Positions 9,390 through 32,428 of a DNA stretch of 64,000 bases are shown in pieces. A model generated the notes under the pieces. That model saw nothing but the letters and a program-made list of their open reading frames with translations, was not told the origin of the DNA and made no database searches. Location of the stretch: assembly GCF_024223415.1 (NCBI RefSeq), contig NZ_CP100500.1; one strand, given 5' to 3'. Position 1 is the stretch's first letter, and each line of letters starts with the position of its first letter. Made by a program: the position numbers and the translations under genes. This DNA is from Escherichia coli (GTDB taxonomy: Bacteria; Pseudomonadota; Gammaproteobacteria; Enterobacterales; Enterobacteriaceae).

Positions 9390-9473
9390 TGTAGGCCGGG
9401 TAAGACGCTGTAGGCCGGATAAGACGCGTCAGCGTCGCATCCGGCAATCAGCATCCGGCGATCACCATCAGGC
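9390..9473. repeat. REP/BIME cluster (tandem palindromic units)
   Basis: Repeated gccggataagacgc / gcgtcgcatccggc palindromic units typical of E. coli REP elements. Confidence 0.7.
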
Positions 9474-12729: not shown

Positions 12730-15009
12730 ATGGATGACCAGTTAAAACAAAGTGCACTTGATTTCCATGAATTTCCAGTTCCAGGGAAAATCCAGGTTTC
12801 TCCAACCAAGCCTCTGGCAACGCAGCGCGATCTGGCGCTGGCCTACTCACCAGGCGTTGCCGCACCTTGTCTTGAAATCGAAAAAGACCCGTTAAAAGCC
12901 TACAAATATACCGCGCGCGGTAACCTGGTGGCGGTGATCTCTAACGGTACGGCGGTGCTGGGGTTAGGCAACATTGGCGCGCTGGCAGGCAAACCGGTGA
13001 TGGAAGGCAAGGGCGTTCTGTTTAAGAAATTCGCCGGGATTGATGTATTTGACATTGAAGTTGATGAACTCGACCCGGACAAATTTATTGAAGTCGTCGC
13101 TGCGCTCGAACCGACCTTCGGCGGCATCAACCTCGAAGACATTAAAGCGCCAGAATGTTTCTATATTGAACAGAAACTGCGCGAGCGGATGAATATTCCG
13201 GTATTCCACGACGATCAGCACGGCACGGCAATTATCAGCACTGCCGCCATCCTCAACGGCTTGCGCGTGGTGGAGAAAAACATCTCTGACGTGCGTATGG
13301 TGGTTTCCGGCGCGGGTGCTGCAGCAATCGCCTGTATGAACCTGCTGGTAGCGCTGGGGCTGCAAAAACATAACATCGTGGTTTGTGATTCAAAAGGCGT
13401 TATCTATCAGGGCCGTGAGCCAAACATGGCGGAAACCAAAGCCGCATATGCGGTGGTGGATGACGGCAAACGTACCCTCGATGATGTGATTGAAGGCGCG
13501 GATATTTTCCTCGGCTGTTCCGGCCCGAAAGTGCTGACCCAGGAAATGGTGAAGAAAATGGCTCGTGCGCCAATGATCCTGGCGCTGGCGAACCCGGAAC
13601 CGGAAATTCTGCCGCCGCTGGCGAAAGAAGTGCGTCCGGATGCCATCATCTGTACCGGCCGTTCTGACTATCCAAACCAGGTCAACAACGTCCTTTGCTT
13701 CCCGTTTATCTTCCGTGGCGCGCTGGACGTTGGCGCAACCGCCATCAACGAAGAGATGAAACTGGCGGCGGTACGTGCGATTGCAGAACTGGCCCATGCG
13801 GAACAGAGTGAAGTGGTGGCTTCAGCGTATGGCGATCAGGATCTGAGCTTTGGTCCGGAATACATCATTCCAAAACCGTTTGATCCGCGCTTGATCGTTA
13901 AGATCGCTCCTGCGGTCGCGAAAGCGGCGATGGAGTCGGGCGTGGCGACGCGTCCGATTGCTGATTTCGACGTCTACATCGACAAGCTGACTGAGTTCGT
14001 TTACAAAACCAACCTGTTTATGAAGCCGATTTTCTCCCAGGCTCGCAAAGCGCCGAAGCGCGTAGTTCTGCCGGAAGGGGAAGAGGCGCGCGTTCTGCAT
14101 GCCACTCAGGAACTGGTAACGCTGGGACTGGCGAAACCGATCCTTATCGGTCGTCCGAACGTGATCGAAATGCGCATTCAGAAACTGGGCTTGCAGATCA
14201 AAGCGGGCGTTGATTTTGAGATCGTCAATAACGAATCCGATCCGCGCTTTAAAGAGTACTGGACCGAATACTTCCAGATCATGAAGCGTCGCGGCGTCAC
14301 TCAGGAACAGGCGCAGCGGGCGCTGATCAGTAACCCGACAGTGATCGGCGCGATCATGGTTCAGCGTGGCGAAGCCGATGCAATGATTTGCGGTACGGTG
14401 GGTGATTATCATGAACATTTTAGCGTGGTGAAAAATGTCTTTGGTTATCGCGATGGCGTTCACACCGCAGGTGCAATGAACGCGCTGCTGCTGCCGAGTG
14501 GTAACACCTTTATTGCCGATACCTACGTCAATGACGAACCAGACGCAGAAGAGCTGGCGGAGATCACCTTGATGGCGGCAGAAACTGTCCGTCGTTTTGG
14601 TATTGAGCCGCGCGTTGCTCTGTTGTCGCACTCCAACTTTGGTTCTTCTGACTGCCCGTCGTCGAGCAAAATGCGTCAGGCGCTGGAACTGGTCAGGGAA
14701 CGTGCGCCAGAACTGATGATTGATGGTGAAATGCACGGCGATGCAGCGCTGGTGGAAGCGATTCGCAACGACCGTATGCCGGACAGCCCTTTGAAAGGTT
14801 CCGCCAATATTCTGGTAATGCCAAACATGGAAGCTGCCCGCATTAGTTACAACTTACTGCGCGTTTCCAGCTCGGAAGGTGTGACTGTCGGTCCGGTGCT
14901 GATGGGCGTGGCGAAACCGGTTCACGTGTTAACGCCGATCGCATCGGTACGTCGTATCGTCAACATGGTGGCGCTGGCCGTGGTTGAAGCGCAAACCCAA
15001 CCGCTGTAA
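12730..15009 (+). CDS. maeB: NADP-dependent malic enzyme MaeB (759 aa, malic enzyme + PTA-like domain)
   Basis: Full ORF; malic enzyme N-domain plus C-terminal phosphotransacetylase-like domain. Confidence 0.9.
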
Positions 15010-15299
15010 TTCTTTTTTAACTCTCACGCTTACCCTGAATATTCAGGGTAAGCGGTCCAGCTGCAATATATTAGTAAAGATTATTACTGAGTTTACGAAT
15101 AATAAAAAAAGCAATATAAAATATCTCGATATTATTTTATTTATATTCATGCGTCGCATATGAAAGTTTATTCATAACAGTAAATATCTCTCCATTCTTA
15201 GTGATCTACCTCACCTTTTAAACGCGCTTGCCGAATTTTGTTATTTACTCTGACGAAAAATTGTCACGATACACGAAAGTTTTTCACAGGCGGCGACTC

Positions 15300-15635
15300 A
15301 TGGATAAAGAACGCATCATTCAGGAATTTGTGCCCGGCAAACAGGTCACGCTGGCGCATCTCATCGCGCATCCCGGCGAGGAACTGGCGAAGAAAATTGG
15401 CGTTCCGGATGCGGGCGCAATTGGCATTATGACGCTAACTCCTGGCGAAACGGCGATGATCGCCGGTGATTTAGCATTGAAAGCCGCTGATGTGCATATC
15501 GGTTTTCTCGACCGCTTCAGTGGTGCATTGGTGATTTATGGCTCGGTGGGCGCAGTAGAAGAAGCGTTATCACAAACCGTCAGTGGCTTAGGTCGCTTAT
15601 TAAATTATACGCTTTGTGAAATGACCAAAAGTTAA
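15300..15635 (+). CDS. eutS: BMC shell protein EutS (111 aa)
   Basis: ORF 15228-15635; start set at [10 protein letters not shown]; first gene of the eut operon. Confidence 0.85.
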
Positions 15636-15647
15636 TACGAGGCATTC

Positions 15648-16127
15648 ATGAAACGAATTGCGTTTGTGGGTACCGTCGGGGCAGGGAAAACAACGTTATT
15701 TAATGCGTTGCAGGGGAATTATACCCTCGCCAGAAAAACACAGGCCGTGGAATTTAATGATAAGGGCGATATTGATACGCCGGGTGAATATTTTAGCCAT
15801 CCCCGCTGGTATCACGCCTTAATTACCACGCTACAGGATGTGGACATGCTGATCTATGTCCACGGCGCGAATGACCCGGAAAGTCGGTTGCCTGCCGGGT
15901 TGCTGGATATTGGCGTCAGCAAACGGCAAATCGCCGTCATCAGTAAAACGGACATGCCAGATGCTGACGTCGCCGCAACGCGAAAGTTATTGCTTGAGAC
16001 GGGCTTCGAAGAGCCGATTTTCGAGCTAAACAGCCACGACCCGCAAAGCGTGCAGCAACTGGTGGATTATCTGGCATCTCTCACCAAACAGGAGGAAGCA
16101 GGTGAAAAAACTCATCACAGCGAATGA
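15648..16127 (+). CDS. eutP: EutP (P-loop GTPase-like, 159 aa)
   Basis: GTVGAGKT P-loop; operon position. Confidence 0.85.
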   Translation: MKRIAFVGTVGAGKTTLFNALQGNYTLARKTQAVEFNDKGDIDTPGEYFSHPRWYHALITTLQDVDMLIYVHGANDPESRLPAGLLDIGVSKRQIAVISKTDMPDADVAATRKLLLETGFEEPIFELNSHDPQSVQQLVDYLASLTKQEEAGEKTHHSE

Positions 16128-16803
16128 TATTCGTGAAGCACACGCGCGCGGCGAACAGGCAATGTCCGTGGTTCTGCGCGCCAGCATTATTACCCCGGAA
16201 GCCCGAGAAGTGGCGGATTTACTGGGTTTTACCATCACCGAATGTGATGAATCGATCCCGGTAACGGCGTCCGTGCCCGCCAGCGTGCCAGCCGATAAAA
16301 CCGAAAGCCAGCGCATCCGCGAAACCATCATTGCCCAGCTGCCGGAAGGCCAGTTTACCGAAAGCCTGGTCGCGCAGCTGATGGAAAAAGTGATGAAGGA
16401 AAAACAGTCGCTGGAGCAGGGTGCAATGCAGCCGAGCTTCAAATCGGTGACCGGCAAAGGCGGCATCAAAGTGATTGATGGCAGCAGCGTCAAGTTTGGT
16501 CGTTTCGACGGCGCAGAGCCGCATTGCGTGGGCTTGACTGATCTTGTGACCGGAGACGACGGCAGCAGCATGGCCGCCGGTTTTATGCAGTGGGAGAACG
16601 CATTCTTCCCGTGGACCCTGAACTACGACGAAATCGACATGGTGCTGGAAGGGGAGCTGCATGTTCGCCACGCAGGAGAAACCATGATCGCCAAAGCAGG
16701 CGACGTAATGTTTATCCCGAAAGGCTCCAGCATCGAATTTGGTACGACATCCAGCGTGAAATTCCTGTATGTCGCCTGGCCGGCTAACTGGCAATCCCTA
16801 TGA
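16102..16803 (+). CDS. eutQ: EutQ (cupin-domain acetate kinase, 233 aa)
   Basis: Operon position; 26-bp overlap with eutP. Confidence 0.85.
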   Translation: MKKLITANDIREAHARGEQAMSVVLRASIITPEAREVADLLGFTITECDESIPVTASVPASVPADKTESQRIRETIIAQLPEGQFTESLVAQLMEKVMKEKQSLEQGAMQPSFKSVTGKGGIKVIDGSSVKFGRFDGAEPHCVGLTDLVTGDDGSSMAAGFMQWENAFFPWTLNYDEIDMVLEGELHVRHAGETMIAKAGDVMFIPKGSSIEFGTTSSVKFLYVAWPANWQSL

Positions 16804-17603
16804 AAGATTTCATCACCGAAGCATGGCTAAGAGCGAACCATACGCTCAGCGAAGGCGCAGAGATCCATCTCCCTGCGGACAGTCGCCTGACGCCCTCTGC
16901 CCGGGAGTTGCTGGAAAGCCGCCATCTGCGCATCAAGTTTATTGACGAGCAGGGCCGCCTGTTTGTTGACGATGAACAGCAGCAGCCGCAGCCCGTTCAT
17001 GGGCTAACCAGTAGCGATGAACATCCGCAGGCGTGCTGCGAACTGTGCCGCCAGCCGGTGGCAAAAAAGCCGGATACGCTGACTCACCTGTCGGCGGAAA
17101 AAATGGTCGCCAAAAGCGATCCGCGTCTGGGTTTTCGCGCGGTTCTCGACAGCACCATTGCGCTGGCAGTGTGGCTGCAAATTGAACTGGCGGAACCGTG
17201 GCAGCCGTGGCTGGCGGATATCCGTTCGCGTCTTGGCAACATTATGCGCGCCGATGCGCTGGGGGAACCGCTGGGCGATCAAGCGATTGTCGGGCTTTCT
17301 GACGAAGATCTGCACCGGCTTTCTCATCAGCCGTTGCGTTATCTTGGTCACGATCATCTGGTGCCGGAAGCCAGCCACGGGCGCGATGCGGCGTTGCTGA
17401 ATCTGCTACGCACCAAAGTGCGGGAAACCGAAACCGTAGCGGCGCAGGTATTTATAACCCGCAGCTTTGAAGTATTACGCCCGGACATCTTGCAGGCGCT
17501 GAACCGCCTTTCGAGCACGGTCTACGTGATGATGATCCTGAGCGTAACGAAGCCGCCGCTAACGGTGAAGCAGATCCAACAACGACTGGGGGAAACGCAA
17601 TGA
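16800..17603 (+). CDS. eutT: EutT corrinoid adenosyltransferase (267 aa)
   Basis: Operon position; ATGA overlap with eutQ. Confidence 0.85.
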
Positions 17604-18616
17604 TTATTGAACGTTGTCGTGAACTGGCGTTGCGAGCGCCCGCCAGAGTGGTTTTTCCGGATGCGTTAGATCAACGTGTGCTGAAAGCTGCGCAATATTT
17701 ACATCAACAAGGTCTGGCAACGCCCATTCTGGTCGCCAATCCGTTTGAACTTCGTCAGTTTGCGCTCAGTCACGGCGTGGCGATGGACGGGCTACAGGTG
17801 ATAGATCCGCATGGCAACCTCGCAATGCGGGAAGAATTTGCTCATCGCTGGCTGGCCCGCGCGGGCGAAAAAACGCCGCCGGATGCGCTGGAAAAACTCA
17901 CCGAACCGCTGATGTTCGCCGCCGCAATGGTCAGCGCCGGTAAAGCGGATGTCTGTATCGCGGGCAACCTCTCTTCCACGGCGAATGTGCTGCGTGCCGG
18001 ATTACGCATTATTGGCTTGCAACCTGGCTGTAAAACGCTCTCTTCCATTTTCCTGATGCTGCCACAGTACAGTGGCCCCGCGTTGGGCTTTGCCGATTGC
18101 AGCGTGGTACCACAGCCGACGGCGGCGCAGCTGGCGGATATCGCGCTTGCCAGCGCCGAAACCTGGCGCGCCATCACCGGAGAAGAGCCGCGCGTGGCGA
18201 TGCTGTCGTTTTCCAGTAACGGTAGCGCCCGTCACCCCTGCGTTGCCAATGTCCAGCAGGCGACAGAAATCGTCCGTGAGCGCGCACCAAAGCTGGTAGT
18301 CGATGGCGAGTTGCAGTTTGACGCCGCCTTCGTGCCGGAAGTGGCGGCGCAAAAAGCGCCTGCCAGCCCGCTACAGGGCAAGGCCAATGTGATGGTTTTT
18401 CCGTCGCTGGAAGCCGGAAATATTGGCTACAAAATCGCACAACGACTCGGCGGATATCGTGCCGTCGGGCCATTGATACAAGGACTTGCCGCGCCGATGC
18501 ACGATCTCTCTCGTGGTTGTAGTGTGCAGGAAATTATCGAGCTGGCGCTGGTGGCAGCTGTGCCGCGTCAGACAGAAGTGAACCGCGAAAGCAGTTTACA
18601 AACACTGGTTGAATGA
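17600..18616 (+). CDS. eutD: EutD phosphotransacetylase (338 aa)
   Basis: PTA-family sequence; operon position. Confidence 0.85.
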
Positions 18617-18654
18617 ACGGTCCCGTTCTGGACCCTGATAAAGAGGAAAGCACA

Positions 18655-18948
18655 ATGGAAGCATTAGGAATGATCGAAACCCGGGGCCTGGTTGCACTGA
18701 TTGAGGCTTCTGACGCGATGGTGAAAGCTGCGCGCGTCAAGCTGGTTGGTGTTAAGCAGATTGGCGGCGGCCTGTGTACTGCCATGGTTCGTGGTGATGT
18801 TGCAGCCTGTAAAGCCGCGACCGATGCAGGTGCCGCAGCGGCACAGCGTATCGGCGAGCTGGTATCTGTACACGTTATCCCGCGTCCGCACGGCGACCTG
18901 GAAGAAGTCTTCCCGATCGGCCTGAAAGGCGATAGCAGCAACCTGTAA
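18655..18948 (+). CDS. eutM: BMC-H shell protein EutM (97 aa)
   Basis: ORF 18613-18948; start set at [13 protein letters not shown], the canonical BMC-domain N-terminus. Confidence 0.85.
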
Positions 18949-19054
18949 TCACCCTGTGTGACGTCGATTCGGGCGTCACGCTCTCTCCTTTTTCATTTTA
19001 CCTTCTGCGGAGGGTAGGGGGAGCTTTTACCTGAAATACGCCACGGAGGCGGGT

Positions 19055-19342
19055 ATGAAACTGGCAGTCGTCACTGGACAAATTGTTTGTACCGTACGCC
19101 ATCACGGACTGGCGCATGACAAATTGCTGATGGTGGAAATGATTGATCCACAAGGTAATCCTGACGGGCAATGCGCCGTCGCCATCGACAATATTGGCGC
19201 GGGAACCGGGGAGTGGGTGTTACTGGTGAGTGGCAGTTCCGCCCGCCAGGCGCATAAAAGCGAAACGTCACCGGTCGATCTGTGCGTGATTGGCATTGTC
19301 GATGAGGTGGTGTCTGGCGGTCAGGTAATTTTCCACAAATAA
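19055..19342 (+). CDS. eutN: BMC vertex protein EutN (95 aa)
   Basis: EutN/CcmL-family sequence. Confidence 0.85.
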   Translation: MKLAVVTGQIVCTVRHHGLAHDKLLMVEMIDPQGNPDGQCAVAIDNIGAGTGEWVLLVSGSSARQAHKSETSPVDLCVIGIVDEVVSGGQVIFHK

Positions 19343-19353
19343 GGCAGAACATC

Positions 19354-20757
19354 ATGAATCAACAGGATATTGAACAGGTGGTGAAAGCGGTACTGCTGAA
19401 AATGCAAAGCAGTGACACGCCGCCCGCCGCCGTTCATGAGATGGGCGTTTTCGCGTCCCTGGATGACGCCGTTGCGGCAGCCAAAGTCGCCCAGCAAGGG
19501 TTAAAAAGCGTGGCAATGCGCCAGTTAGCCATTGCTGCCATTCGTGAAGCAGGCGAAAAACACGCCAGAGATTTAGCGGAACTTGCCGTCAGTGAAACCG
19601 GCATGGGTCGCGTTGAAGATAAATTTGCCAAAAACGTCGCTCAGGCACGCGGCACGCCAGGCGTTGAGTGTCTCTCTCCGCAAGTGCTGACGGGCGACAA
19701 CGGCCTGACTTTAATTGAAAACGCGCCCTGGGGCGTGGTGGCTTCGGTGACGCCGTCCACTAACCCGGCGGCAACCGTAATTAATAACGCCATCAGCCTG
19801 ATTGCCGCGGGCAACAGCGTCATTTTTGCCCCGCATCCGGCGGCGAAAAAAGTCTCCCAGCGGGCGATCACGCTGCTCAACCAGGCGATTGTTGCCGCAG
19901 GCGGGCCGGAAAACTTACTGGTTACTGTGGCAAATCCGGATATCGAAACCGCGCAACGCTTGTTCAAGTTTCCGGGTATCGGCCTGCTGGTGGTGACCGG
20001 CGGCGAAGCGGTAGTAGAAGCGGCGCGTAAACACACCAATAAACGTCTGATTGCCGCAGGCGCTGGCAACCCGCCGGTAGTGGTGGATGAAACCGCTGAC
20101 CTCGCCCGTGCTGCTCAGTCCATCGTCAAAGGCGCGTCTTTCGATAACAACATCATTTGTGCCGACGAAAAGGTACTGATTGTTGTGGATAGCGTAGCCG
20201 ATGAACTGATGCGTCTGATGGAAGGCCAGCACGCGGTGAAACTGACCGCAGAACAGGCGCAGCAGCTGCAACCGGTGTTGCTGAAAAATATCGACGAGCG
20301 CGGAAAAGGCACCGTCAGCCGTGACTGGGTTGGTCGCGATGCGGCGAAAATCGCGGCGGCAATCGGCCTGAACGTGCCGCAAGAAACGCGCCTGCTGTTT
20401 GTGGAAACCACCGCAGAACATCCGTTTGCCGTGACTGAACTGATGATGCCGGTGTTGCCCGTCGTGCGCGTCGCCAACGTGGCGGATGCCATTGCGCTAG
20501 CGGTGAAACTGGAGGGCGGTTGCCACCACACGGCGGCAATGCACTCGCGCAACATCGAAAACATGAACCAGATGGCGAATGCTATTGATACCAGCATTTT
20601 CGTTAAGAACGGACCGTGCATTGCCGGGCTGGGGCTGGGCGGGGAAGGCTGGACCACCATGACCATCACCACGCCAACCGGTGAAGGGGTAACCAGCGCG
20701 CGTACGTTTGTCCGTCTGCGTCGCTGTGTATTAGTCGATGCGTTTCGCATTGTTTAA
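19354..20757 (+). CDS. eutE: EutE acetaldehyde dehydrogenase (467 aa)
   Basis: Aldehyde dehydrogenase family; operon position. Confidence 0.85.
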   Translation: MNQQDIEQVVKAVLLKMQSSDTPPAAVHEMGVFASLDDAVAAAKVAQQGLKSVAMRQLAIAAIREAGEKHARDLAELAVSETGMGRVEDKFAKNVAQARGTPGVECLSPQVLTGDNGLTLIENAPWGVVASVTPSTNPAATVINNAISLIAAGNSVIFAPHPAAKKVSQRAITLLNQAIVAAGGPENLLVTVANPDIETAQRLFKFPGIGLLVVTGGEAVVEAARKHTNKRLIAAGAGNPPVVVDETADLARAAQSIVKGASFDNNIICADEKVLIVVDSVADELMRLMEGQHAVKLTAEQAQQLQPVLLKNIDERGKGTVSRDWVGRDAAKIAAAIGLNVPQETRLLFVETTAEHPFAVTELMMPVLPVVRVANVADAIALAVKLEGGCHHTAAMHSRNIENMNQMANAIDTSIFVKNGPCIAGLGLGGEGWTTMTITTPTGEGVTSARTFVRLRRCVLVDAFRIV

Positions 20758-20767
20758 GGAGTAACCG

Positions 20768-21604
20768 ATGGCGCACGACGAACAATGGCTCACCCCACGT
20801 CTGCAAACAGCGGCAACGCTGTGTAACCAGACGCCCGCCGCGACGGAATCTCCGCTGTGGCTGGGGGTGGATCTGGGCACCTGCGATGTGGTGTCGATGG
20901 TTGTCGACCGCGACGGTCAGCCAGTGGCGGTATGCCTCGACTGGGCCGATGTGGTTCGCGACGGCATCGTCTGGGATTTCTTCGGCGCGGTCACCATTGT
21001 TCGTCGCCATCTCGACACGCTCGAGCAGCAATTCGGTCGCCGTTTTAGCCATGCGGCGACTTCATTTCCTCCAGGTACGGACCCGCGTATTTCCATCAAC
21101 GTGCTGGAGTCTGCTGGACTGGAAGTGAGCCATGTGCTGGATGAGCCAGCCGCAGTCGCGGATCTGCTGCAACTGGACAACGCCGGTGTAGTGGATATCG
21201 GCGGCGGCACTACCGGCATTGCCATCGTGAAAAAGGGCAAGGTGACGTACTCGGCGGATGAAGCAACCGGCGGACATCACATCTCTCTGACTCTCGCCGG
21301 AAATCGCCGTATTTCGCTGGAAGAGGCAGAGCAGTACAAGCGCGGTCACGGTGACGAGATTTGGCCCGCGGTGAAACCGGTGTACGAAAAAATGGCGGAC
21401 ATTGTCGCCCGGCATATTGAAGGGCAGGGCATTACTGATTTATGGCTGGCGGGCGGCTCCTGTATGCAACCGGGCGTGGCAGAACTGTTTCGCAAACAAT
21501 TCCCGGCGTTACAGGTGCATTTACCGCAGCACAGTTTGTTTATGACCCCGCTGGCGATCGCCAGTAGTGGGCGAGAGAAAGCGGAGGGGCTATATGCAAA
21601 ATGA
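20768..21604 (+). CDS. eutJ: EutJ chaperonin (Hsp70/actin-like, 278 aa)
   Basis: Operon position; actin-fold ATPase motifs. Confidence 0.85.
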   Translation: MAHDEQWLTPRLQTAATLCNQTPAATESPLWLGVDLGTCDVVSMVVDRDGQPVAVCLDWADVVRDGIVWDFFGAVTIVRRHLDTLEQQFGRRFSHAATSFPPGTDPRISINVLESAGLEVSHVLDEPAAVADLLQLDNAGVVDIGGGTTGIAIVKKGKVTYSADEATGGHHISLTLAGNRRISLEEAEQYKRGHGDEIWPAVKPVYEKMADIVARHIEGQGITDLWLAGGSCMQPGVAELFRKQFPALQVHLPQHSLFMTPLAIASSGREKAEGLYAK

Positions 21605-22781
21605 ATTGCAGACCGCGCTCTTTCAGGCGTTCGATACCCTGAATCTGCAACGGGTAAAAACATTTAGCGTTCCACCGGTGACGCTTTGCGGTCCGGGCTC
21701 GGTGAGCAGTTGCGGACAGCAAGCGCAAACGCGTGGGCTGAAACATCTGTTCGTGATGGCAGACAGCTTTTTGCATCAGGCAGGGATGACCGCCGGGCTG
21801 ACGCGTAGCCTGGCCGTTAAAGGTATCGCCATGACGCTCTGGCCATGTCCGGTGGGCGAACCGTGCATTACCGACGTGTGTGCAGCCGTGGCGCAGTTGC
21901 GTGAGTCAGGTTGTGACGGGGTGATCGCATTTGGCGGCGGCTCGGTGCTGGATGCGGCGAAAGCCGTGGCGTTGCTGGTGACGAACCCGGATAGCACGCT
22001 GGCAGAGATGTCAGAAACCAGCGTTCTGCAACCGCGCTTGCCGCTGATTGCCATTCCAACTACCGCCGGAACCGGCTCTGAAACCACCAATGTAACGGTG
22101 ATTATCGACGCGGTGAGCGGGCGCAAGCAGGTGTTAGCCCATGCCTCGCTGATGCCGGATGTGGCGATCCTCGACGCCGCATTGACCGAAGGTGTGCCGT
22201 CGCATGTCACGGCGATGACCGGCATTGATGCGTTAACCCATGCCATTGAAGCATACAGCGCCCTGAACGCTACACCGTTTACCGACAGTCTGGCGATTGG
22301 TGCCATTGCGATGATTGGCAAATCGCTGCCGAAAGCGGTGGGCTACGGTCACGACCTTGCCGCGCGCGAGAGCATGTTGCTGGCTTCATGTATGGCGGGA
22401 ATGGCGTTTTCCAGTGCGGGTCTTGGGTTGTGCCACGCGATGGCGCATCAGCCGGGCGCGGCGCTGCATATTCCACACGGTCTCGCGAACGCTATGTTGC
22501 TGCCAACGGTGATGGAGTTTAACCGGATGGTTTGTCGTGAACGCTTTAGTCAGATTGGTCGGGCACTGCGAACTAAAAAATCCGACGATCGTGACGCTAT
22601 TAACGCGGTAAGTGAGCTGATTGCGGAAGTTGGGATTGGTAAACGACTGGGCGATGTTGGCGCGACATCTGCGCATTACGGTGCATGGGCGCAGGCCGCG
22701 CAGGAAGATATTTGTCTGCGCAGCAACCCGCGTACCGCCAGCCTGGAACAGATTGTCGGCCTGTACGCAGCGGCGCAATAA
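21594..22781 (+). CDS. eutG: EutG iron-containing alcohol dehydrogenase (395 aa)
   Basis: ORF 21567-22781; start set at MQNELQTALF; Fe-ADH family. Confidence 0.85.
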   Translation: MQNELQTALFQAFDTLNLQRVKTFSVPPVTLCGPGSVSSCGQQAQTRGLKHLFVMADSFLHQAGMTAGLTRSLAVKGIAMTLWPCPVGEPCITDVCAAVAQLRESGCDGVIAFGGGSVLDAAKAVALLVTNPDSTLAEMSETSVLQPRLPLIAIPTTAGTGSETTNVTVIIDAVSGRKQVLAHASLMPDVAILDAALTEGVPSHVTAMTGIDALTHAIEAYSALNATPFTDSLAIGAIAMIGKSLPKAVGYGHDLAARESMLLASCMAGMAFSSAGLGLCHAMAHQPGAALHIPHGLANAMLLPTVMEFNRMVCRERFSQIGRALRTKKSDDRDAINAVSELIAEVGIGKRLGDVGATSAHYGAWAQAAQEDICLRSNPRTASLEQIVGLYAAAQ

Positions 22782-22801
22782 ATGCCGGATGCGACGCATG
22801 C

Positions 22802-23556
<755 letters not shown>

Positions 23557-23660
23557 ATCAGCATACTTGTCCTTAGCCTTCTGCAGTGACAGCTGGTAGT
23601 ACAGCGTGCTTCTGGCCAGCCCTGCAGCCTTTAACAGGTCAGACTGGCAGTGTCCGCACT

Positions 23661-24191
23661 TCAGGCTCTGGATGACTTTCGTTTTTTCTCCAGCTCCTGG
23701 CGCTTTTTTTCCAGGAGATGCTCCTGCATGGCTTTCAGATATGCATTTTCTGCGCGAAGATAACGCAGCTCATTCTTCATCTCTTCCGGCGTCATGTTTG
23801 CCTCGTTTTCATGGGTATCATCAGAACGGGTCATGCTTTTCTCCTTCCTGCGCCTGATAAAGGCCTCATTACCAGATTTGCGGTAGCCTTTTATCCAGTT
23901 TTTAACCATGTTGTGGCTGGGAATGTTAAACCGGGCAGCTACCCGGGGTAGAGACTCAGAATGCCCGAGAGCATAAAGAACCACGCAAAGTTTATCTTCA
24001 GGAGAATAGCTACGCTTGTGTCTGCAATCCAGTGCCTGAGGACCGTGAAGAAGAAAAAGATTAATCCAGTGTGAGAGGCTGGTGTGAGAAAGTTGAAAGA
24101 GTTTTGCCGTAGAAATGATGCCTGCATGACCGGCCAGGTAATGATTTACAGCGGCAAGTTTTACTTCAAATGAATGTTTCATAAACTGCAC
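23661..24191 (-). CDS. IS3-family transposase OrfA (HTH, 176 aa)
   Basis: Translation shows HTH plus leucine-zipper-like C-terminus; ends at LEKKRKSSRA just after an A6 slippery run. Confidence 0.8.
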   Translation of the reverse strand: MQFMKHSFEVKLAAVNHYLAGHAGIISTAKLFQLSHTSLSHWINLFLLHGPQALDCRHKRSYSPEDKLCVVLYALGHSESLPRVAARFNIPSHNMVKNWIKGYRKSGNEAFIRRRKEKSMTRSDDTHENEANMTPEEMKNELRYLRAENAYLKAMQEHLLEKKRQELEKKRKSSRA

Positions 24192-24236
24192 CTTCAGATG
24201 TCAGATTATGTCCAACATTTGGGGTGCAGTTCAATG

Positions 24237-24305
24237 TCGCGTCTTATCCGGCCTACGGGATTGCACATGTAGAGCGGATAAAGCGTTCACGCCGCATCCG
24301 CTAAT
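24237..24305. repeat. REP palindromic units (eutG-eutH intergenic, right of the IS)
   Basis: tcgcgtcttatccggcctac ... gcggataaagcg ... gccgcatccgc REP-like units; the left half gccggatgcgacgcatg sits at 22784-22800 on the other side of the IS. Confidence 0.65.
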
Positions 24306-24333
24306 AAATAACAACTAACAGGGAGTAAAGGCG

Positions 24334-25559
24334 ATGGGAATTAACGAAATCATCATGTACATCATGATGTTCTTTATGCTGATAGCTGCCGTAGACAGGA
24401 TCCTGTCGCAGTTCGGCGGTTCTGCTCGTTTCCTCGGTAAGTTCGGTAAAAGTATCGAAGGATCAGGCGGTCAGTTCGAAGAAGGCTTTATGGCAATGGG
24501 CGCTCTGGGTCTGGCGATGGTCGGTATGACCGCGCTGGCACCGGTACTGGCTCACGTACTCGGGCCGGTAATTATCCCGGTTTACGAAATGCTCGGCGCA
24601 AACCCGTCAATGTTCGCCGGAACGCTGCTGGCGTGCGATATGGGCGGCTTCTTCCTCGCCAAAGAGCTGGCGGGCGGCGACGTAGCCGCGTGGCTATACT
24701 CTGGGTTAATTCTCGGGTCGATGATGGGGCCAACGATTGTGTTTTCCATTCCGGTGGCGCTCGGCATTATCGAACCTTCTGACCGTCGTTATCTGGCGCT
24801 CGGCGTGCTGGCGGGCATTGTGACCATTCCGATTGGTTGTATCGCTGGTGGTCTGGTAGCTATGTACTCCGGTGTGCAGATCAACGGCCAGCCGGTGGAA
24901 TTCACTTTCGCCCTGATCCTGATGAACATGATCCCGGTGATCATTGTTGCGATTCTGGTGGCGCTGGGGCTGAAATTCATCCCGGAAAAAATGATCAACG
25001 GCTTCCAGATCTTCGCCAAATTCCTCGTTGCATTGATCACCCTCGGTCTTGCCGCTGCGGTAGTGAAATTCCTGCTTGGCTGGGAACTGATCCCCGGTCT
25101 GGATCCTATCTTTATGGCCCTGGCGATAAACCCGGTGAGGTGATGCGCGCCATTGAAGTTATCGGTTCTATCTCCTGCGTTCTGTTAGGGGCGTATCCGA
25201 TGGTGCTGCTGCTGACCCGCTGGTTTGAAAAACCGCTGATGAGCGTCGGTAAAGTGCTGAATATGAACAACATCGCGGCAGCCGGCATGGTGGCAACGCT
25301 TGCCAACAACATCCCGATGTTCGGCATGATGAAGCAGATGGATACCCGCGGCAAAGTCATCAACTGCGCCTTCGCCGTTTCTGCTGCTTTCGCCCTGGGC
25401 GACCACTTAGGCTTCGCCGCTGCCAACATGAATGCCATGATCTTCCCGATGATTGTCGGCAAGTTGATCGGCGGCGTAACGGCGATTGGCGTGGCGATGA
25501 TGCTGGTGCCAAAAGACGACGCGGCCGCAGCTAAAACCGAAGCGGAGGCACAATCGTGA
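24334..25559 (+). pseudogene. eutH: eutH ethanolamine permease, disrupted by a 1-bp frameshift
   Basis: 262 codons in frame from ATG 24334 to ...GLDPIFMA, then LAINPVR-stop at 25141-25143; the remaining 146 codons (PGDKPGEVMRAIEV... to stop 25557-25559) are in another frame; 262+146 = 408 aa, the canonical EutH length. Confidence 0.75.
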
Positions 25560-26959
25560 ACACTCGCCAGCTACTGAGCGTCGGTATCGATATCGGCACC
25601 ACCACCACTCAGGTGATTTTCTCCCACCTGGAACTGGTTAACCGTGCGGCGGTGTCGCAGGTGCCGCGCTACGAATTCATCAAACGCGAAATTAGCTGGC
25701 AAAGCCCGGTGTTCTTTACCCCTGTCGATAAACAGGGTGGTTTAAAAGAAGCGGAACTGAAATCGCTGATTTTAGAGCAATATCAGGCTGCGGGCATTGC
25801 GCCGGAAAGCGTTGATTCTGGTGCCATCATCATCACCGGTGAAAGCGCGAAAACCCGCAATGCTCGCCCGGCGGTGATGGCGCTCTCTCAGTCGCTGGGC
25901 GATTTTGTCGTCGCCAGCGCCGGGCCGCACCTCGAATCCGTGATCGCCGGTCACGGAGCCGGGGCACAAACCCTTTCTGAACAACGGCTGTGTCGGGTAC
26001 TGAATATCGACATTGGCGGTGGCACCGCGAACTACGCCCTGTTCGATGCCGGAAAAATCAGCGGCACTGCCTGCCTCAACGTCGGTGGTCGCCTGCTGGA
26101 AACCGACAGCCAGGGGCGCGTGGTTTACGCTCATAAACCGGGGCAGATGATTGTGGATGAGTGCTTCGGCGCAGGCACCGACGCCCGTTCGCTGACCGGC
26201 GCGCAGCTGGTGCAGGTTACCCGGCGGATGGCAGAGCTGATTGTCGAAGTGATTGACGGAACGCTCTCGCCGCTCGCGCAGGCATTAATGCAAACCGGTT
26301 TGCTCCCCGCAGGTGTTACGCCCGAAATCATTACGCTTTCTGGCGGCGTGGGCGAATGTTATCGCCACCAGCCCGCCGACCCGTTCTGTTTTGCCGATAT
26401 TGGCCCACTTCTGGCAACGGCGCTGCATGACCATCCGCGCCTGCGTGAGATGAATGTGCAGTTTCCGGCGCAAACCGTACGCGCCACGGTGATTGGCGCG
26501 GGGGCACATACCCTTTCGCTCTCTGGCAGCACAATCTGGCTGGAGGGCGTACAACTGCCGCTGCGCAATTTGCCGGTGGCGATCCCGATTGATGAAACGG
26601 ATCTGGTGGGTGCCTGGCAACAGGCGCTGATTCAGCTGGATCTTGATCCCAAAACTGACGCGTACGTGCTGGCGCTTCCCGCCTCGCTGCCTGTGCGTTA
26701 CGCCGCGGTACTGACGGTCATCAACGCGTTGGTCGATTTCGTCGCGCGTTTTCCGAATCCGCATCCCCTGCTGGTGGTGGCCGGGCAGGACTTTGGTAAA
26801 GCTCTGGGCATGTTGTTGCGCCCACAGCTACAACAACTCCCGTTGGCAGTCATTGACGAAGTGATTGTCCGCGCGGGGGACTATATCGACATTGGTACGC
26901 CTCTTTTTGGCGGATCGGTTGTGCCGGTGACGGTGAAATCACTCGCATTTCCTTCCTGA
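25556..26959 (+). CDS. eutA: EutA ethanolamine ammonia-lyase reactivase (467 aa)
   Basis: Operon position; recognised sequence. Confidence 0.85.
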   Translation: MNTRQLLSVGIDIGTTTTQVIFSHLELVNRAAVSQVPRYEFIKREISWQSPVFFTPVDKQGGLKEAELKSLILEQYQAAGIAPESVDSGAIIITGESAKTRNARPAVMALSQSLGDFVVASAGPHLESVIAGHGAGAQTLSEQRLCRVLNIDIGGGTANYALFDAGKISGTACLNVGGRLLETDSQGRVVYAHKPGQMIVDECFGAGTDARSLTGAQLVQVTRRMAELIVEVIDGTLSPLAQALMQTGLLPAGVTPEIITLSGGVGECYRHQPADPFCFADIGPLLATALHDHPRLREMNVQFPAQTVRATVIGAGAHTLSLSGSTIWLEGVQLPLRNLPVAIPIDETDLVGAWQQALIQLDLDPKTDAYVLALPASLPVRYAAVLTVINALVDFVARFPNPHPLLVVAGQDFGKALGMLLRPQLQQLPLAVIDEVIVRAGDYIDIGTPLFGGSVVPVTVKSLAFPS

Positions 26960-26970
26960 GGGAACGACTT

Positions 26971-28332
26971 ATGAAACTAAAGACCACATTGTTCGGCAAT
27001 GTATATCAGTTTAAGGATGTAAAAGAGGTGCTGGCTAAAGCCAACGAACTGCGTTCGGGGGATGTGCTGGCAGGCGTTGCAGCGGCAAGTTCACAGGAGC
27101 GCGTGGCGGCAAAGCAGGTGTTGTCGGAAATGACCGTAGCGGACATCCGCAATAATCCGGTGATTGCCTATGAAGATGACTGCGTGACGCGGCTGATTCA
27201 GGACGATGTTAACGAAACGGCCTACAACCAGATTAAAAACTGGAGCATCAGCGAACTGCGTGAGTATGTGCTGAGCGATGAAACCAGCGTGGACGACATT
27301 GCCTTTACCCGCAAAGGGCTGACCTCGGAAGTGGTCGCGGCGGTAGCGAAGATTTGCTCCAACGCGGACCTGATCTACGGCGCGAAGAAAATGCCGGTAA
27401 TCAAAAAGGCCAATACCACCATCGGTATTCCGGGCACCTTCAGCGCCCGTTTGCAGCCAAATGACACTCGTGACGACGTGCAAAGTATCGCCGCGCAAAT
27501 CTACGAAGGGCTTTCCTTCGGGGTGGGCGATGCGGTGATCGGCGTTAACCCGGTGACTGACGACGTGGAAAACTTAAGCCGCGTGCTGGATACCATTTAT
27601 GGCGTGATCGACAAATTCAACATCCCAACTCAGGGCTGCGTACTGGCGCACGTCACCACCCAGATCGAAGCGATTCGTCGCGGCGCGCCTGGCGGACTGA
27701 TTTTCCAGAGTATCTGTGGCAGCGAAAAAGGGCTGAAAGAGTTTGGCGTGGAACTGGCGATGCTCGACGAAGCGCGCGCAGTGGGCGCAGAGTTCAACCG
27801 TATCGCCGGGGAAAACTGCCTCTACTTCGAAACCGGACAAGGCTCTGCGCTATCCGCTGGCGCTAACTTCGGCGCTGACCAGGTGACGATGGAAGCACGT
27901 AACTATGGGCTGGCGCGTCATTACGATCCGTTTATCGTCAACACCGTGGTCGGTTTTATTGGGCCGGAGTATCTCTACAACGACCGCCAGATTATCCGTG
28001 CTGGCTTAGAAGATCACTTTATGGGCAAGCTGAGCGGCATCTCTATGGGCTGTGACTGCTGTTACACCAACCACGCTGACGCTGACCAGAACCTCAACGA
28101 AAACCTGATGATCCTGCTCGCCACCGCAGGCTGCAACTACATCATGGGGATGCCGTTGGGTGATGACATCATGCTCAACTACCAGACCACCGCATTCCAC
28201 GATACCGCCACTGTGCGTCAGTTACTCAACCTGCGCCCGTCACCGGAGTTTGAACGCTGGCTGGAAAGCATGGGCATTATGGCAAACGGTCGCCTGACCA
28301 AACGGGCGGGCGATCCGTCACTGTTCTTCTGA
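26971..28332 (+). CDS. eutB: EutB ethanolamine ammonia-lyase large subunit (453 aa)
   Basis: Recognised sequence; directly follows eutA with no intervening prophage. Confidence 0.9.
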   Translation: MKLKTTLFGNVYQFKDVKEVLAKANELRSGDVLAGVAAASSQERVAAKQVLSEMTVADIRNNPVIAYEDDCVTRLIQDDVNETAYNQIKNWSISELREYVLSDETSVDDIAFTRKGLTSEVVAAVAKICSNADLIYGAKKMPVIKKANTTIGIPGTFSARLQPNDTRDDVQSIAAQIYEGLSFGVGDAVIGVNPVTDDVENLSRVLDTIYGVIDKFNIPTQGCVLAHVTTQIEAIRRGAPGGLIFQSICGSEKGLKEFGVELAMLDEARAVGAEFNRIAGENCLYFETGQGSALSAGANFGADQVTMEARNYGLARHYDPFIVNTVVGFIGPEYLYNDRQIIRAGLEDHFMGKLSGISMGCDCCYTNHADADQNLNENLMILLATAGCNYIMGMPLGDDIMLNYQTTAFHDTATVRQLLNLRPSPEFERWLESMGIMANGRLTKRAGDPSLFF

Positions 28333-28352
28333 TGACGCGGAGATAACACATC

Positions 28353-29240
28353 ATGGATCAAAAACAGATTGAAGAAATTGTACGCAGCGTGATGGCGTCA
28401 ATGGGACAAACGGCCCCCGCGCCGTCAGAAGCAAAGTGCGCCACTACCACCTGTGCGGCACCGGTGACCTCGGAAAGCTGCGCGCTGGATTTAGGTTCTG
28501 CGGAAGCAAAAGCGTGGATTGGTGTTGAAAACCCACATCGTGCGGATGTGTTAACAGAACTGCGTCGCAGCACCGTGGCCCGCGTTTGTACCGGTCGTGC
28601 CGGTCCGCGTCCGCGTACCCAGGCGCTGCTGCGTTTCCTGGCCGATCACTCTCGTTCGAAAGATACCGTACTTAAAGAAGTGCCGGAAGAGTGGGTGAAA
28701 GCGCAGGGCTTGCTGGAAGTACGCTCTGAAATTAGCGACAAAAATCTCTACCTGACTCGCCCGGATATGGGCCGCCGCCTGTGTGCAGAAGCTGTTGAAG
28801 CGCTGAAAGCGCAGTGTGTTGCCAATCCGGACGTGCAGGTCGTTATTTCTGATGGCCTGTCAACTGATGCGATCACCGTGAACTACGAAGAGATCCTGCC
28901 ACCGCTGATGGCGGGCCTGAAACAGGCCGGGCTGAAAGTCGGTACACCATTCTTTGTTCGTTATGGTCGCGTGAAGATTGAAGATCAGATCGGTGAGATC
29001 CTCGGCGCGAAAGTGGTGATCCTGCTGGTGGGCGAACGTCCGGGGTTGGGTCAGTCAGAAAGCCTCTCCTGCTACGCCGTTTACTCGCCACGTATGGCGA
29101 CCACCGTTGAGGCCGATCGCACCTGTATCTCTAACATTCACCAGGGCGGCACGCCGCCGGTTGAAGCCGCAGCCGTCATTGTGGATTTGGCGAAACGTAT
29201 GCTGGAGCAGAAAGCATCCGGCATCAACATGACCCGATAA
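28353..29240 (+). CDS. eutC: EutC ethanolamine ammonia-lyase small subunit (295 aa)
   Basis: Recognised sequence. Confidence 0.9.
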
Positions 29241-29249
29241 GGAGGCATC

Positions 29250-29909
29250 ATGCCAGCTTTAGATTTGATTCGACCGTCTGTCACCGCTATGCGGGTGATT
29301 GCCTCCGTTAACGCCGATTTTGCGCGTGAACTAAAATTGCCGCCGCATATTCGTAGCCTCGGTCTGATTTCTGCCGACTCCGATGACGTCACCTACATTG
29401 CCGCTGATGAAGCGACCAAGCAGGCGATGGTGGAAGTGGTGTATGGCCGCTCGCTGTATGCGGGAGCGGCACACGGCCCGTCACCGACTGCCGGTGAAGT
29501 GCTGATTATGCTTGGTGGGCCAAACCCGGCGGAAGTGCGTGCAGGTCTGGATGCGATGGTTGCGCATATTGAAAATGGCGCTGCTTTCCAGTGGGCTAAT
29601 GATGCGCAAGATACGGCATTCCTGGCACATGTAGTTTCGCGTACCGGTTCTTATCTCTCATCAACCGCCGGGATCACGCTTGGCGATCCGATGGCGTATC
29701 TGGTGGCACCGCCGCTGGAAGCGACCTACGGCATTGATGCAGCGTTGAAATCTGCCGACGTACAGCTGGTGACCTATGTCCCGCCACCGTCTGAAACCAA
29801 CTACTCGGCAGCATTTTTAACCGGTAGCCAGGCCGCGTGTAAAGCAGCCTGTAACGCCTTTACCGATGCAGTGCTGGAAATCGCGCGTAATCCAATCCAG
29901 CGTGCGTAA
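29250..29909 (+). CDS. eutL: BMC-T shell protein EutL (219 aa)
   Basis: Recognised sequence. Confidence 0.85.
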
Positions 29910-29921
29910 TGGAGGTTGCCG

Positions 29922-30422
29922 ATGATCAATGCACTGGGATTGCTGGAAGTGGACGGCATGGTCGCTGCGATAGATGCAGCGGATGCCATGCTCAAAGCAG
30001 CTAACGTTCGTCTGCTCAGTCACGAAGTGCTTGACCCTGGTCGCTTAACGCTGGTGGTGGAAGGCGATCTGGCGGCGTGTCGTGCTGCGCTGGACGCAGG
30101 TTGTGCTGCCGCGATGCGTACCGGGCGTGTCATCAGCCGTAAGGAGATCGGTCGGCCAGACGATGACACCCAGTGGCTGGTTACTGGCTTTAACCGCCAG
30201 CCGAAGCAACCCGTAAAGGAACCCGACGCGCCAGTTATCGTCGCGGAATCTGCTGACGAGTTGTTGGCGCTGTTAACATCAGTACGTCAGGGAATGACGG
30301 CAGGAGAAGTGGCTGCCCACTTTGGCTGGCCGCTGGAAAAAGCCAGAAATGCGCTCGAACAGCTCTTTTCTGCCGGGACGTTACGTAAACGCAGTAGTCG
30401 TTATCGTCTCAAGCCCCATTAA
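29922..30422 (+). CDS. eutK: BMC shell protein EutK (about 166 aa)
   Basis: ORF 29916-30422; BMC domain plus C-terminal HTH-like tail; start uncertain between 29916 and 29922. Confidence 0.8.
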   Translation: MINALGLLEVDGMVAAIDAADAMLKAANVRLLSHEVLDPGRLTLVVEGDLAACRAALDAGCAAAMRTGRVISRKEIGRPDDDTQWLVTGFNRQPKQPVKEPDAPVIVAESADELLALLTSVRQGMTAGEVAAHFGWPLEKARNALEQLFSAGTLRKRSSRYRLKPH

Positions 30423-30467
30423 CCTGTCGGAGGTGCCGGGTGTCCTACAACACCCGGCATTAACATC

Positions 30468-31520
30468 ATGAAAAAGACCCGTACAGCCAATTTGCACCAT
30501 CTTTATCATGAACCCTTACCCGAAAACCTGAAGCTCACGCCGAAGGTCGAAGTGGATAATGTTCATCAACGACAGACAACGGATGTCTATGAACATGCTT
30601 TAACGATTACCGCCTGGCAGCAGATTTACGATCAGCTGCATCCGGGCAAGTTTCATGGTGAATTTACGGAAATTCTACTCGATGATATTCAGGTTTTTCG
30701 TGAATACACCGGTCTGGCGCTGCGTCAGTCGTGTCTGGTCTGGCCGAACTCGTTCTGGTTTGGCATTCCGGCGACGCGCGGTGAGCAGGGATTTATCGGT
30801 TCGCAATGTCTGGGAAGCGCAGAAATAGCGACGCGCCCTGGTGGAACCGAGTTTGAATTAAGTACGCCGGACGATTACACGATCCTGGGCGTAGTGCTTT
30901 CTGAAGATGTCATCACCCGTCAGGCTAACTTTTTGCATAATCCGGATCGGGTATTACATATGCTGCGTAGCCAGTCGGCGCTGGAAGTGAAAGAGCAGCA
31001 TAAAGCCGCGCTGTGGGGCTTTGTCCAACAGGCGCTGGCGACGTTTTGCGAGAACCCGGAAAATCTCCATCAGCCTGCAGTGCGAAAAGTGCTGGGGGAT
31101 AATTTGCTAATGGCGATGGGGGCGATGCTCGAAGACGCGCAACCAATGGTGACGGCGGAAAGCATCAGTCATCAGAGTTACCGTAGATTACTTTCCCGCG
31201 CCCGTGAATATGTGCTGGAAAACATGTCCGAACCGGTGACGGTGCTGGATTTGTGTAATCAACTGCATGTCAGCCGCCGCACGCTACAAAACGCGTTTCA
31301 CGCTATTTTAGGCATTGGCCCAAACGCGTGGCTGAAACGCATTCGCCTGAACGCCGTGCGCCGCGAACTAATAAGCCCGTGGTCGCAAAGCACAACGGTA
31401 AAAGACGCCGCCATGCAGTGGGGATTCTGGCATCTGGGGCAATTTGCCACGGATTACCAGCAGCTGTTTGCCGAGAAGCCGTCGTTGACGTTGCATCAGC
31501 GGATGCGGGAATGGGGGTGA
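30468..31520 (+). CDS. eutR: EutR AraC-family activator of the eut operon (350 aa)
   Basis: AraC-type HTH C-terminus; last gene of the operon. Confidence 0.85.
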
Positions 31521-31525
31521 GGGAG

Positions 31526-32428
<903 letters not shown>

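Follow-up and report, generated by a model that had tools for sequence, protein, structure and literature searches.

A conserved two-hairpin RNA spacer between the shell protein genes eutM and eutN of Escherichia coli, a possible intercistronic stabiliser and insulator

How can one operon supply two shell proteins of the same microcompartment in very unequal amounts? Microcompartments need hundreds of hexamers per 12 pentamers, and the ethanolamine utilisation (eut) operon of Escherichia coli yields EutM and EutN at a ratio of about 100:1. The genes of these two proteins are separated by a spacer at positions 18949-19054 of the window, i.e., the whole stretch of 64,000 nucleotides analysed here, which contains the E. 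coli eut operon. The eutM-eutN junction is the sole junction that keeps a long folded RNA spacer in every sampled proteobacterial eut operon, the spacer consisting of a private, conserved module of two hairpins in some lineages and of repetitive extragenic palindromic (REP) elements in others. Our tentative answer, to which we give somewhat less than even confidence, is that the spacer, in the manner of an intercistronic REP, stabilises the upstream message and insulates eutN from eutM, and that the ribosome-binding site of eutN is itself hard to access. The element is of interest chiefly for microcompartment stoichiometry and engineering. Should it prove to set the ratio, it would provide a simple design rule for engineered Eut compartments, for which the usual practice is to re-clone eutS, M, N, L and K and to drop the native spacers.

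An earlier note, made from the sequence alone, had singled out this gap as exceptional in an operon whose genes mostly overlap or are separated by about 10 bp. Its coordinates for the 106-bp spacer are exact, and most eut junctions do overlap or measure 9-20 bp, but eutD-eutM (38 bp) and eutG-eutH (116 bp) are longer as well. The eutM-eutN gap is one of two long gaps in the operon, the other being eutG-eutH, which measures 116 bp in ordinary E. coli and 1,552 bp in the window because IS1397 is inserted there.

On the sense strand, the spacer is predicted to fold into two consecutive hairpins, followed by a single-stranded box and a small hairpin that contains the Shine-Dalgarno (SD) sequence of eutN (Table 1). 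Hairpin 1 begins 7 nt 3' of the eutM stop codon and has a predicted folding free energy of -16.2 kcal/mol (z = -4.4), which was reached by 0 of 200 shuffled sequences, compared with -8.0 kcal/mol (z = -1.8) on the antisense strand. The gtgacg/cgtcac hairpin described in the earlier note is contained in it (18958-18963 and 18974-18979), the actual stem being longer, at 10 bp. Hairpin 2 is bipartite: its outer stem, in which a CU tract pairs with GGGGGAG (19017-19023), encloses a 7-bp inner stem, and its free energy is -17.3 kcal/mol (z = -2.8) on the sense strand versus -6.0 kcal/mol (z = -0.2) on the antisense strand. For the spacer as a whole, the minimum free energy is -43.5, with a z of -2.86 for the sense strand, unmatched in 200 shuffles, and of -1.2 for the antisense strand. 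Both hairpins contain many G.U pairs, which would become A.C mismatches on the opposite strand. Poor folding of the minus strand and the many G.U pairs thus assign the structure to the sense mRNA. The spacer contains what characterises the stabiliser class structurally, a stable sense-strand stem-loop just past a stop codon within an operon.

The T-rich tract that had been noted behind the hairpin exists, but it is not a free tail: it forms the 5' arm and the internal loop of hairpin 2. Within it, CUCUCUCCUUUU is invariant across Escherichia, Citrobacter and K. spallanzanii. The single-stranded box has a core, UACCUGAA, that is kept in most hairpin-type spacers up to Buttiauxella and Entomohabitans; one Buttiauxella has UAUCUGAA, and Yokenella lacks the core. 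At the 5' edge of the box, GAGC↓UUUU fits the RNase E motif RN↓WUU. The small hairpin around the eutN SD motif is formed by GCC (19040-19042) and GGC (19048-19050), which are invariant in 14/14 sequences, and the adjacent GGGU (19051-19054) is predicted to pair with ACCC (18951-18954). An anti-SD switch, in which the CU tract would pair with the eutN SD motif, was rejected, as it would comprise about 5 bp against the 7-8 bp of hairpin 2 and is favoured in no fold. A small open reading frame (ORF) was likewise rejected: the GTG-start frame of 19 codons in E. coli is broken in Citrobacter by loop indels that are not multiples of three, and inspection by eye revealed no SD motif. In Citrobacter and K. 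spallanzanii, the last approximately 22 nt of the spacer (equivalent to window 19037-19058) contain a six-codon mini-ORF, AUG CCA CGG AGG CGG GUA UGA, the stop codon of which overlaps the eutN AUG; in E. coli, its AUG is replaced by ACG. With 13 nt between it and the nearest SD-like run, this mini-ORF is, judged from the sequence, unlikely to be translated.

The predicted pairing was tested on an alignment of 22 sequences, with slid partners and 500 column shuffles as controls. In this alignment, 92% of the cells were paired, compared with 43-61% with slid partners; double changes were found in 8 pairs, and the observed covariation score was not reached in any of the 500 shuffles. RNAalifold, applied to 14 sequences, recovered the same two hairpins together with the SD hairpin. 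Compensatory changes in hairpin 2 include AU to GC and CG to UA in the inner stem and a CG/GC base pair. The stem of hairpin 1 is kept in 21/21 aligned homologues, with six pairs invariant over six genera and one pair occurring as CG, UG or UA; its loop varies from 5 to about 26 nt and is unconserved in sequence. The spacer variants sampled in E. coli all leave the stem of hairpin 1 intact; their changes fall in the loops, the internal loop or the slip-tolerant CU/G arms.

The degree of conservation can be gauged from the neighbouring genes, since four-fold degenerate sites of eutM, eutN and eutE are 53-57% identical between E. coli and Citrobacter. In the spacer, hairpin 2 is 93-95% identical between E. 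coli and the C. freundii group, and for the last 30 nt, which form the eutN leader, the identity of E. coli and Citrobacter is 93-97%. In hairpin 1, the latter comparison gives 70-90% for the stems and 25-33%, with indels, for the loop. Relative to the four-fold sites, the spacer is, by this sequence comparison, under purifying selection. Spacer identity well above that of four-fold sites, taken together with the compensatory changes, argues that the element is functional and partly constrained at the sequence level.

Within E. coli, the locus is nearly universal. An 801-bp query around the spacer, with the gene order eutD(pta)-eutM-eutN-eutE according to the RefSeq annotation of an identical sequence, matched 5408 of 5426 complete genomes at 95-100% identity. 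The spacer itself is present in 5407 of the 5426, without annotation, and occupies one place per genome (median; range 1-2; blastn, word size 11), so that a repeat family or mobile element can be ruled out. The pattern GTGACGYC-N4-30-GRCGTCAC occurs once in the 64 kb, compared with 0.00 expected, and the covariance models of Rfam 15 gave no match in the 10 kb from 14000 to 24000 on either strand, even at E <= 10. In strain 90-1, IS911 lies inside the spacer directly 3' of hairpin 2, between GGGGGAGCTTT and GAAGTGG, equivalent to window position 19027 or thereabouts. In strain EC931 (NZ_CP049118.1), the match to the 801-bp query stops after its first 223 bases, and a 'BMC domain-containing protein' adjoins an aldehyde dehydrogenase, which suggests that a deletion took out the 3' end of eutM, the spacer and eutN.

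A wider survey, in which one genome per GTDB species was scanned with EutN, yielded 42 proteobacterial loci with adjacent eutM and eutN. The gap measures 52-211 nt in all 42, and strong hairpins are present in each. In most lineages, the first hairpin begins approximately 6-12 nt past the eutM stop codon, by an approximate measure. The GUGACG-type hairpin was found in 24 loci, from Escherichia, the C. freundii complex, K. spallanzanii, Buttiauxella, Entomohabitans and Yokenella; in these spacers, GUGACGYC-loop-GRCGUCAC comes first and, as a rule, a pyrimidine tract, a second hairpin, UACCUGAA and the SD motif come after it. In 14 loci (Salmonella, other Klebsiella, C. koseri, C. amalonaticus, C. 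sedlakii, Pseudocitrobacter and Pluralibacter) the spacer contains REPs or bacterial interspersed mosaic elements (BIMEs), and in the other four (Intestinirhabdus, Pseudomonas nitroreducens and two Rhodocyclales) other GC-rich hairpins. A BIME also makes up eutG-eutH, the second long gap of the operon. The REP consensus (GCCGGATG... / CTTATCCGGCCTAC) is absent from 18949-19054; it does occur elsewhere in the window (9391, 9410, 24243 and 45680) and in the eutM-eutN gap of 14 other species. In C. amalonaticus and C. koseri, the first approximately 25 nt of the spacer contain GGCTACGTCGGATCG, which by eye resembles the 5' arm and loop of hairpin 1, ACGTCGATTCG; it may be what survived of the module after the remainder had given way to REPs. 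With up to 2 mismatches, the consensus CTTATCCGGCCTAC is found five times in the window, including 9391-9423, 9879 and 45680, where 0.15 occurrences are expected; two of them, at 9391 and 9410, form a tandem pair downstream of the tkt/tal genes.

Published quantitative proteomic data for E. coli K-12 grown on ethanolamine give relative levels of 100 for EutQ, 96 for EutM, 1 for EutN, 27 for EutE, 37 for EutB, 24 for EutC and 39 for EutL, and, for upstream genes, 11 for EutS, 7 for EutP and 10 for EutD. EutM is the most abundant Eut shell protein and EutN the least abundant, and the spacer lies exactly between their genes. The ratio-setting role that the earlier note had proposed is plausible for this reason, but the downstream proteins do not drop together as that proposal had supposed: EutE, EutB, EutC and EutL exceed EutS, EutP and EutD, so there is no general drop past the spacer. 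The grouping of EutS with EutM as abundant proteins is not borne out either, EutS being at 11 and EutM at 96. A dip that is specific to EutN points to translation and not to transcription.

The predicted accessibility of the ribosome-binding sites agrees with this. Calculated on sequences that extend 110 nt upstream and 60 nt downstream, the energy needed to open positions -15 to +6 around the start codon is 11.9 kcal/mol for eutN, and eutM and eutE each require 4.8 kcal/mol. Other species, whichever kind of spacer they have, show the same order: the value for eutN is higher than that for eutM in 23 of 23 cases and higher than that for eutE in 21 of 23. Over the 11 genes with protein data, opening energy and abundance give a Spearman coefficient of -0.59 (p = 0.056).

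From the observed structure, its strand specificity, conservation and covariation and its replacement by REPs, we infer each functional step of the following scheme. The spacer would be a sense-strand module of the polycistronic eut mRNA that uncouples the expression of eutM from that of eutN in the fashion of intercistronic REPs. The hairpins would block 3'-to-5' exonucleases, so that the 5' part with eutM of any transcript that had ended or been cut downstream would stay intact and long-lived; a likely cut site would be the conserved single-stranded UUUUACCUGAAAU box. At the same time, they would hold the approximately 100-nt untranslated stretch folded, offering poor entry to Rho or RNase E, and would prevent the heavy ribosome traffic coming off eutM from re-initiating at eutN. 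The latter gene would then be translated solely from its own site, which has a strong GGAGG sequence and is, by prediction, among the operon's two least accessible sites. The outcome would be about 100 EutM per EutN, while eutE and later genes, with open ribosome-binding sites, would still be well expressed. This scheme would account for the long gap in every lineage, the interchange of private hairpins and REPs, the 96:1:27 protein pattern and the need for read-through, and, if true, would represent a natural case of unrelated hairpin elements swapping at one site.

It should be noted that several points weigh against this scheme. Because EutS, EutP and EutD are approximately 10-fold below EutM on the same upstream RNA, per-gene translation must dominate, and a stabiliser alone would leave that difference unexplained. 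The low level of EutN could reflect instability of the protein or weak detection of a 95-aa protein by mass spectrometry. The eutL site is predicted to be poorly accessible (11.1) and its protein is abundant nonetheless (39), and the opening-energy contrast, which was calculated on related sequences and is partly an effect of the GC-rich SD motif, is supportive only. A hairpin within 15 nt of a stop codon reportedly lowers expression of the upstream gene (Liang, Rudd and Deutscher 2015), which fits poorly with the abundance of EutM. REPs may be found in the gap simply because the site is permissive. Hairpin 2, the invariant GUGACG/CGUCAC stem and the UACCUGAA box are more conserved than a generic hairpin needs, and conservation beyond structural need hints at something more specific. 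No description of the spacer, of eutM 3' ends or of processing was found in the literature covered, which did not include the eut operon paper of Kofoid et al. 1999. The Term-seq tables of Adams et al. 2021, obtained from cultures in which eut was uninduced, list no sense 3' end in the spacer.

The proposed stabiliser and insulator is, all the same, a new example of a familiar device and not a new kind of element. REPs are documented both as mRNA stabilisers and as transcription attenuators. The spacer resembles the REPs and BIMEs of malE-malF and pstS-pstC in having stable sense stem-loops just past the stop codon of the operon's most expressed gene, and genuine REPs occupy the exact eutM-eutN site in other genera. 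It differs from them in that it is single-copy, lacks the REP consensus, i.e., has neither of the marks of the REP/BIME family (many dispersed copies and the consensus), and has been inherited vertically with the operon; furthermore, REPs have no counterpart to its second, bipartite hairpin or to its conserved single-stranded box. In the Rhodobacter puf operon, intercistronic hairpins protect the upstream mRNA segment and thereby fix the stoichiometry of abundant and rare proteins, and segmental decay has been demonstrated. The puf hairpins and the eut spacer are similar stem-loops in polycistronic mRNAs with unrelated sequences, segmental decay being known for puf only. By analogy, the spacer may resemble the malE-malF and pstS-pstC REP stabilisers, the puf hairpins or the hairpins that follow genes for major fimbrial subunits most in its action.

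The alternative that survives best, although we consider it unlikely, is a leaky Rho-independent terminator or attenuator, as the earlier note had proposed. Hairpin 1, and perhaps hairpin 2 with its UUUU, would release some RNA polymerases, and eutS-eutM transcripts would exceed eutN-eutR transcripts; because hairpin 1 starts only 7 nt past the stop codon, a closely trailing ribosome would suppress it, making readthrough dependent on the coupling of transcription and translation. The structure postulated by the note is indeed a real, selected RNA structure on the sense strand, but it makes a poor intrinsic terminator. The GC-rich stem of 10 bp, with 6 G-C pairs, a 6-nt loop and the stability given above, lies in the range of intrinsic terminators (approximately 5-14 bp, GC-rich, short loop), and it is the longest among the 12 terminator-like matches in 8 kb, a number that is nevertheless at chance frequency (10.1 +/- 3.6 in shuffles). 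A pyrimidine- or U-rich run is present past hairpin 1 in Escherichia, Citrobacter, K. spallanzanii and Buttiauxella, and UUUU directly follows hairpin 2. However, UCUCUCCU occupies the 8 positions after the hairpin 1 stem, and 8 nt separate this stem from the U5 run, which lies within hairpin 2. Conservation extends to the hairpin and not to the tail, which varies: Yokenella has CCCAGAUU and Entomohabitans UCGCUUUCCC, without a U-tract, and REP-type spacers have none either. A d'Aubenton-Carafa-type score was -20 for hairpin 1, -44 for hairpin 2 and +30 for the trp terminator; it was also negative for an rrnB T1 control, roughly delimited, so the score is not robust and is used qualitatively only. 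Among the spacers, the sole positive classical terminator score was that of B. noackiae (UUUCUUU).

The abundance of EutM among the shell proteins and the presence, at the same site in other genera, of BIMEs, which can attenuate transcription, would be in line with a leaky terminator, but the high levels of EutE, EutB, EutC and EutL relative to EutS, EutP and EutD would not. In enterohaemorrhagic E. coli, RNA sequencing gave values of 4.37 for eutM, 4.30 for eutN and 4.14 for eutE (apparently log2 fold changes), i.e., equal induction across the gap, on a relative and not an absolute scale. Promoter P1 is needed for all eut genes down to the last, eutR, the autoinduction of which requires that P1 transcripts cross the gap. 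An efficient terminator at the spacer is therefore unlikely, and transcription termination at the hairpins is leaky at most. Hairpins between the gene of an abundant component and those of minor components of one transcription unit are familiar from the rplL-rpoB attenuator, rpsU-dnaG T1 and post-papA-type hairpins. The eut spacer shares this position with such operon-internal leaky terminators; those elements have a functional U-tract or mapped 3' ends, whereas its U-tract is displaced, paired into hairpin 2 and unconserved, and the proteins encoded past eutN remain abundant.

A binding site for a trans-acting factor, either a protein or a small RNA, that regulates the translation of eutN or the fate of the eut mRNA is improbable. 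Under this alternative, hairpin 2, the GUGACG/CGUCAC stem and the UACCUGAA box would be recognition elements and not generic structure. The proposed stabiliser and insulator does not fully explain the conservation of hairpin 2, the hairpin 1 stem and UACCUGAA, and therefore there is a small chance of a specific partner: hairpin 2 and the leader are at the identities given above compared with approximately 55% at neutral sites, six pairs of hairpin 1 are invariant, and UACCUGAA has a wide reach. GGA motifs, of the sort recognised by CsrA, lie close to the apex of hairpin 2 and within the SD loop, but they are simply the Shine-Dalgarno sequence. EutK has an orphan helix-turn-helix domain with no function assigned. 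The absence of an Rfam match speaks against the trans-acting factor, as does the exact-match search for the complementary UUCAGGUA, which was not found on the sense strand from 15001 to 31600. Moreover, the module is replaced by REPs in Salmonella, Klebsiella and several Citrobacter that have the same eut genes, which argues against an indispensable specific partner.

A more elaborate version is slightly less probable still, namely that hairpin 2, the GUGACG/CGUCAC stem and the UACCUGAA box constitute a dedicated cis-regulatory RNA of the eut operons of enterobacteria that is read by such a partner. The partner might conceivably tune the pentamer-to-hexamer ratio or tether the translation of eut mRNA to nascent microcompartments, at equally long odds. 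Similarly doubtful candidates would be the orphan nucleic-acid-binding domain of EutK, CsrA or a small RNA, and this layer of control would have been lost in the REP-bearing lineages. A site for the Firmicute antiterminator EutV, which has an ANTAR domain, is likewise a two-hairpin RNA upstream of a eut gene in an ethanolamine utilisation cluster. ANTAR sites have two hexanucleotide loops, overlap a terminator and need EutV/EutW. In contrast, the spacer loops measure 6 nt and 4 nt in E. coli and from 4 to approximately 26 nt in homologues, and the E. coli operon, annotated through eutL, contains no EutV/EutW, its regulator being EutR. ANTAR loops carry an A1/G4 pattern, which the spacer loop GAUUCG lacks. 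A EutV substrate was ruled out, as the loops do not fit and eutV and eutW are not present in the operon up to eutL.

A feature of the DNA or of the opposite strand, such as an internal eutN promoter, a promoter or terminator of an antisense RNA, or a protein-binding palindrome (TGACGTCA-like), is very improbable. In its favour, GTGACGTCAC is a perfect DNA palindrome in some species, and Adams et al. 2021 mapped a minus-strand RNA 3' end antisense to the 3' part of eutM (window 18878-18938, ending at 18878), 78 nt beyond hairpin 1, which implies a transcript that starts in or beyond the spacer. However, a consensus scan of both spacer strands revealed no promoter-like site, neither for such an antisense transcript nor for eutN, and a TGAAAT-like hexamer is unconserved in Buttiauxella. 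The structures need G.U pairs and fall to the -8.0 and -6.0 kcal/mol mentioned above on the minus strand. The half-site spacing varies from 5 to approximately 26 nt and is therefore a misfit for a dimeric DNA-binding protein, and the arm in the C. freundii group, GACGCC, is not palindromic. A CRP-like or MetJ-like site (TGTGA, GACGTC) was ruled out by the variable spacing and, by eye, the lack of tandem boxes. The least probable explanation of all, that the spacer has no function and is a tolerated remnant or chance hairpin in a merely separating gap, could draw on the insertion of REPs and insertion sequences (IS), including the IS911 of strain 90-1, and on a four-fold variation of spacer length among lineages, but is contradicted by the strong purifying selection relative to four-fold sites, the compensatory substitutions, the failure of all 200 shuffles to fold equally, the presence of the spacer in nearly all E. 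coli genomes, and a long structured gap at 42/42 junctions while other eut junctions are compact.

Table 1. Features of the eutM-eutN region, in window coordinates.
Feature	Position	Strand	Description	Basis
eutM	18655..18948	+	major BMC-H shell protein gene; stop TAA 18946-18948	RefSeq annotation, translation
eutM-eutN spacer	18949-19054		106 nt	
Hairpin 1	18956..18981	+	10-bp stem, GUGUGACGUC (18956-18965) with GGCGUCACGC (18972-18981); loop GAUUCG 18966-18971	folding, alignment
Pyrimidine/T-rich tract	18981..18999	+	CUCUCCU 18983-18989 is the predicted outer 5' arm of hairpin 2; 18990-18998 internal loop	minimum free energy fold, RNAalifold consensus
Hairpin 2, bipartite	18983..19023	+	outer stem 18983-18989 with 19017-19023; inner stem 18999-19005 with 19010-19016; apical loop UGCG 19006-19009	
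Single-stranded box UUUUACCUGAAAU	19025..19037	+	predicted unpaired; core UACCUGAA	alignments, folding
eutN ribosome-binding region	19039..19054	+	SD motif GGAGG 19045-19049, 5 nt before ATG	
eutN	19055..19342	+	BMC-P pentamer (vertex) protein gene; ATG at 19055	annotation, translation

The other long gap of the operon has been disrupted in the window. IS1397, a member of the IS3 family, lies between eutG and eutH at 22782-24333, with minus-strand ORFs at 22834-23556 and 23661-24191. Its insertion point is the first REP of the BIME that normally fills the 116-bp gap, and the palindromic units of BIMEs are a known target of IS1397. Being antisense within the operon, the element may be polar on eutH through eutR. 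The eutH gene (24334-25559) has a 1-bp deletion at approximately window position 25118 relative to strain NCTC10444 and is split into the overlapping frames 24334-25143 and 24837-25559, each of which matches part of the Pfam EutH family; this frameshift is either a real pseudogene or a sequencing error. In strain NCTC10444, the whole eutG-eutH region, including IS1397, matches the window at 99.9% identity.

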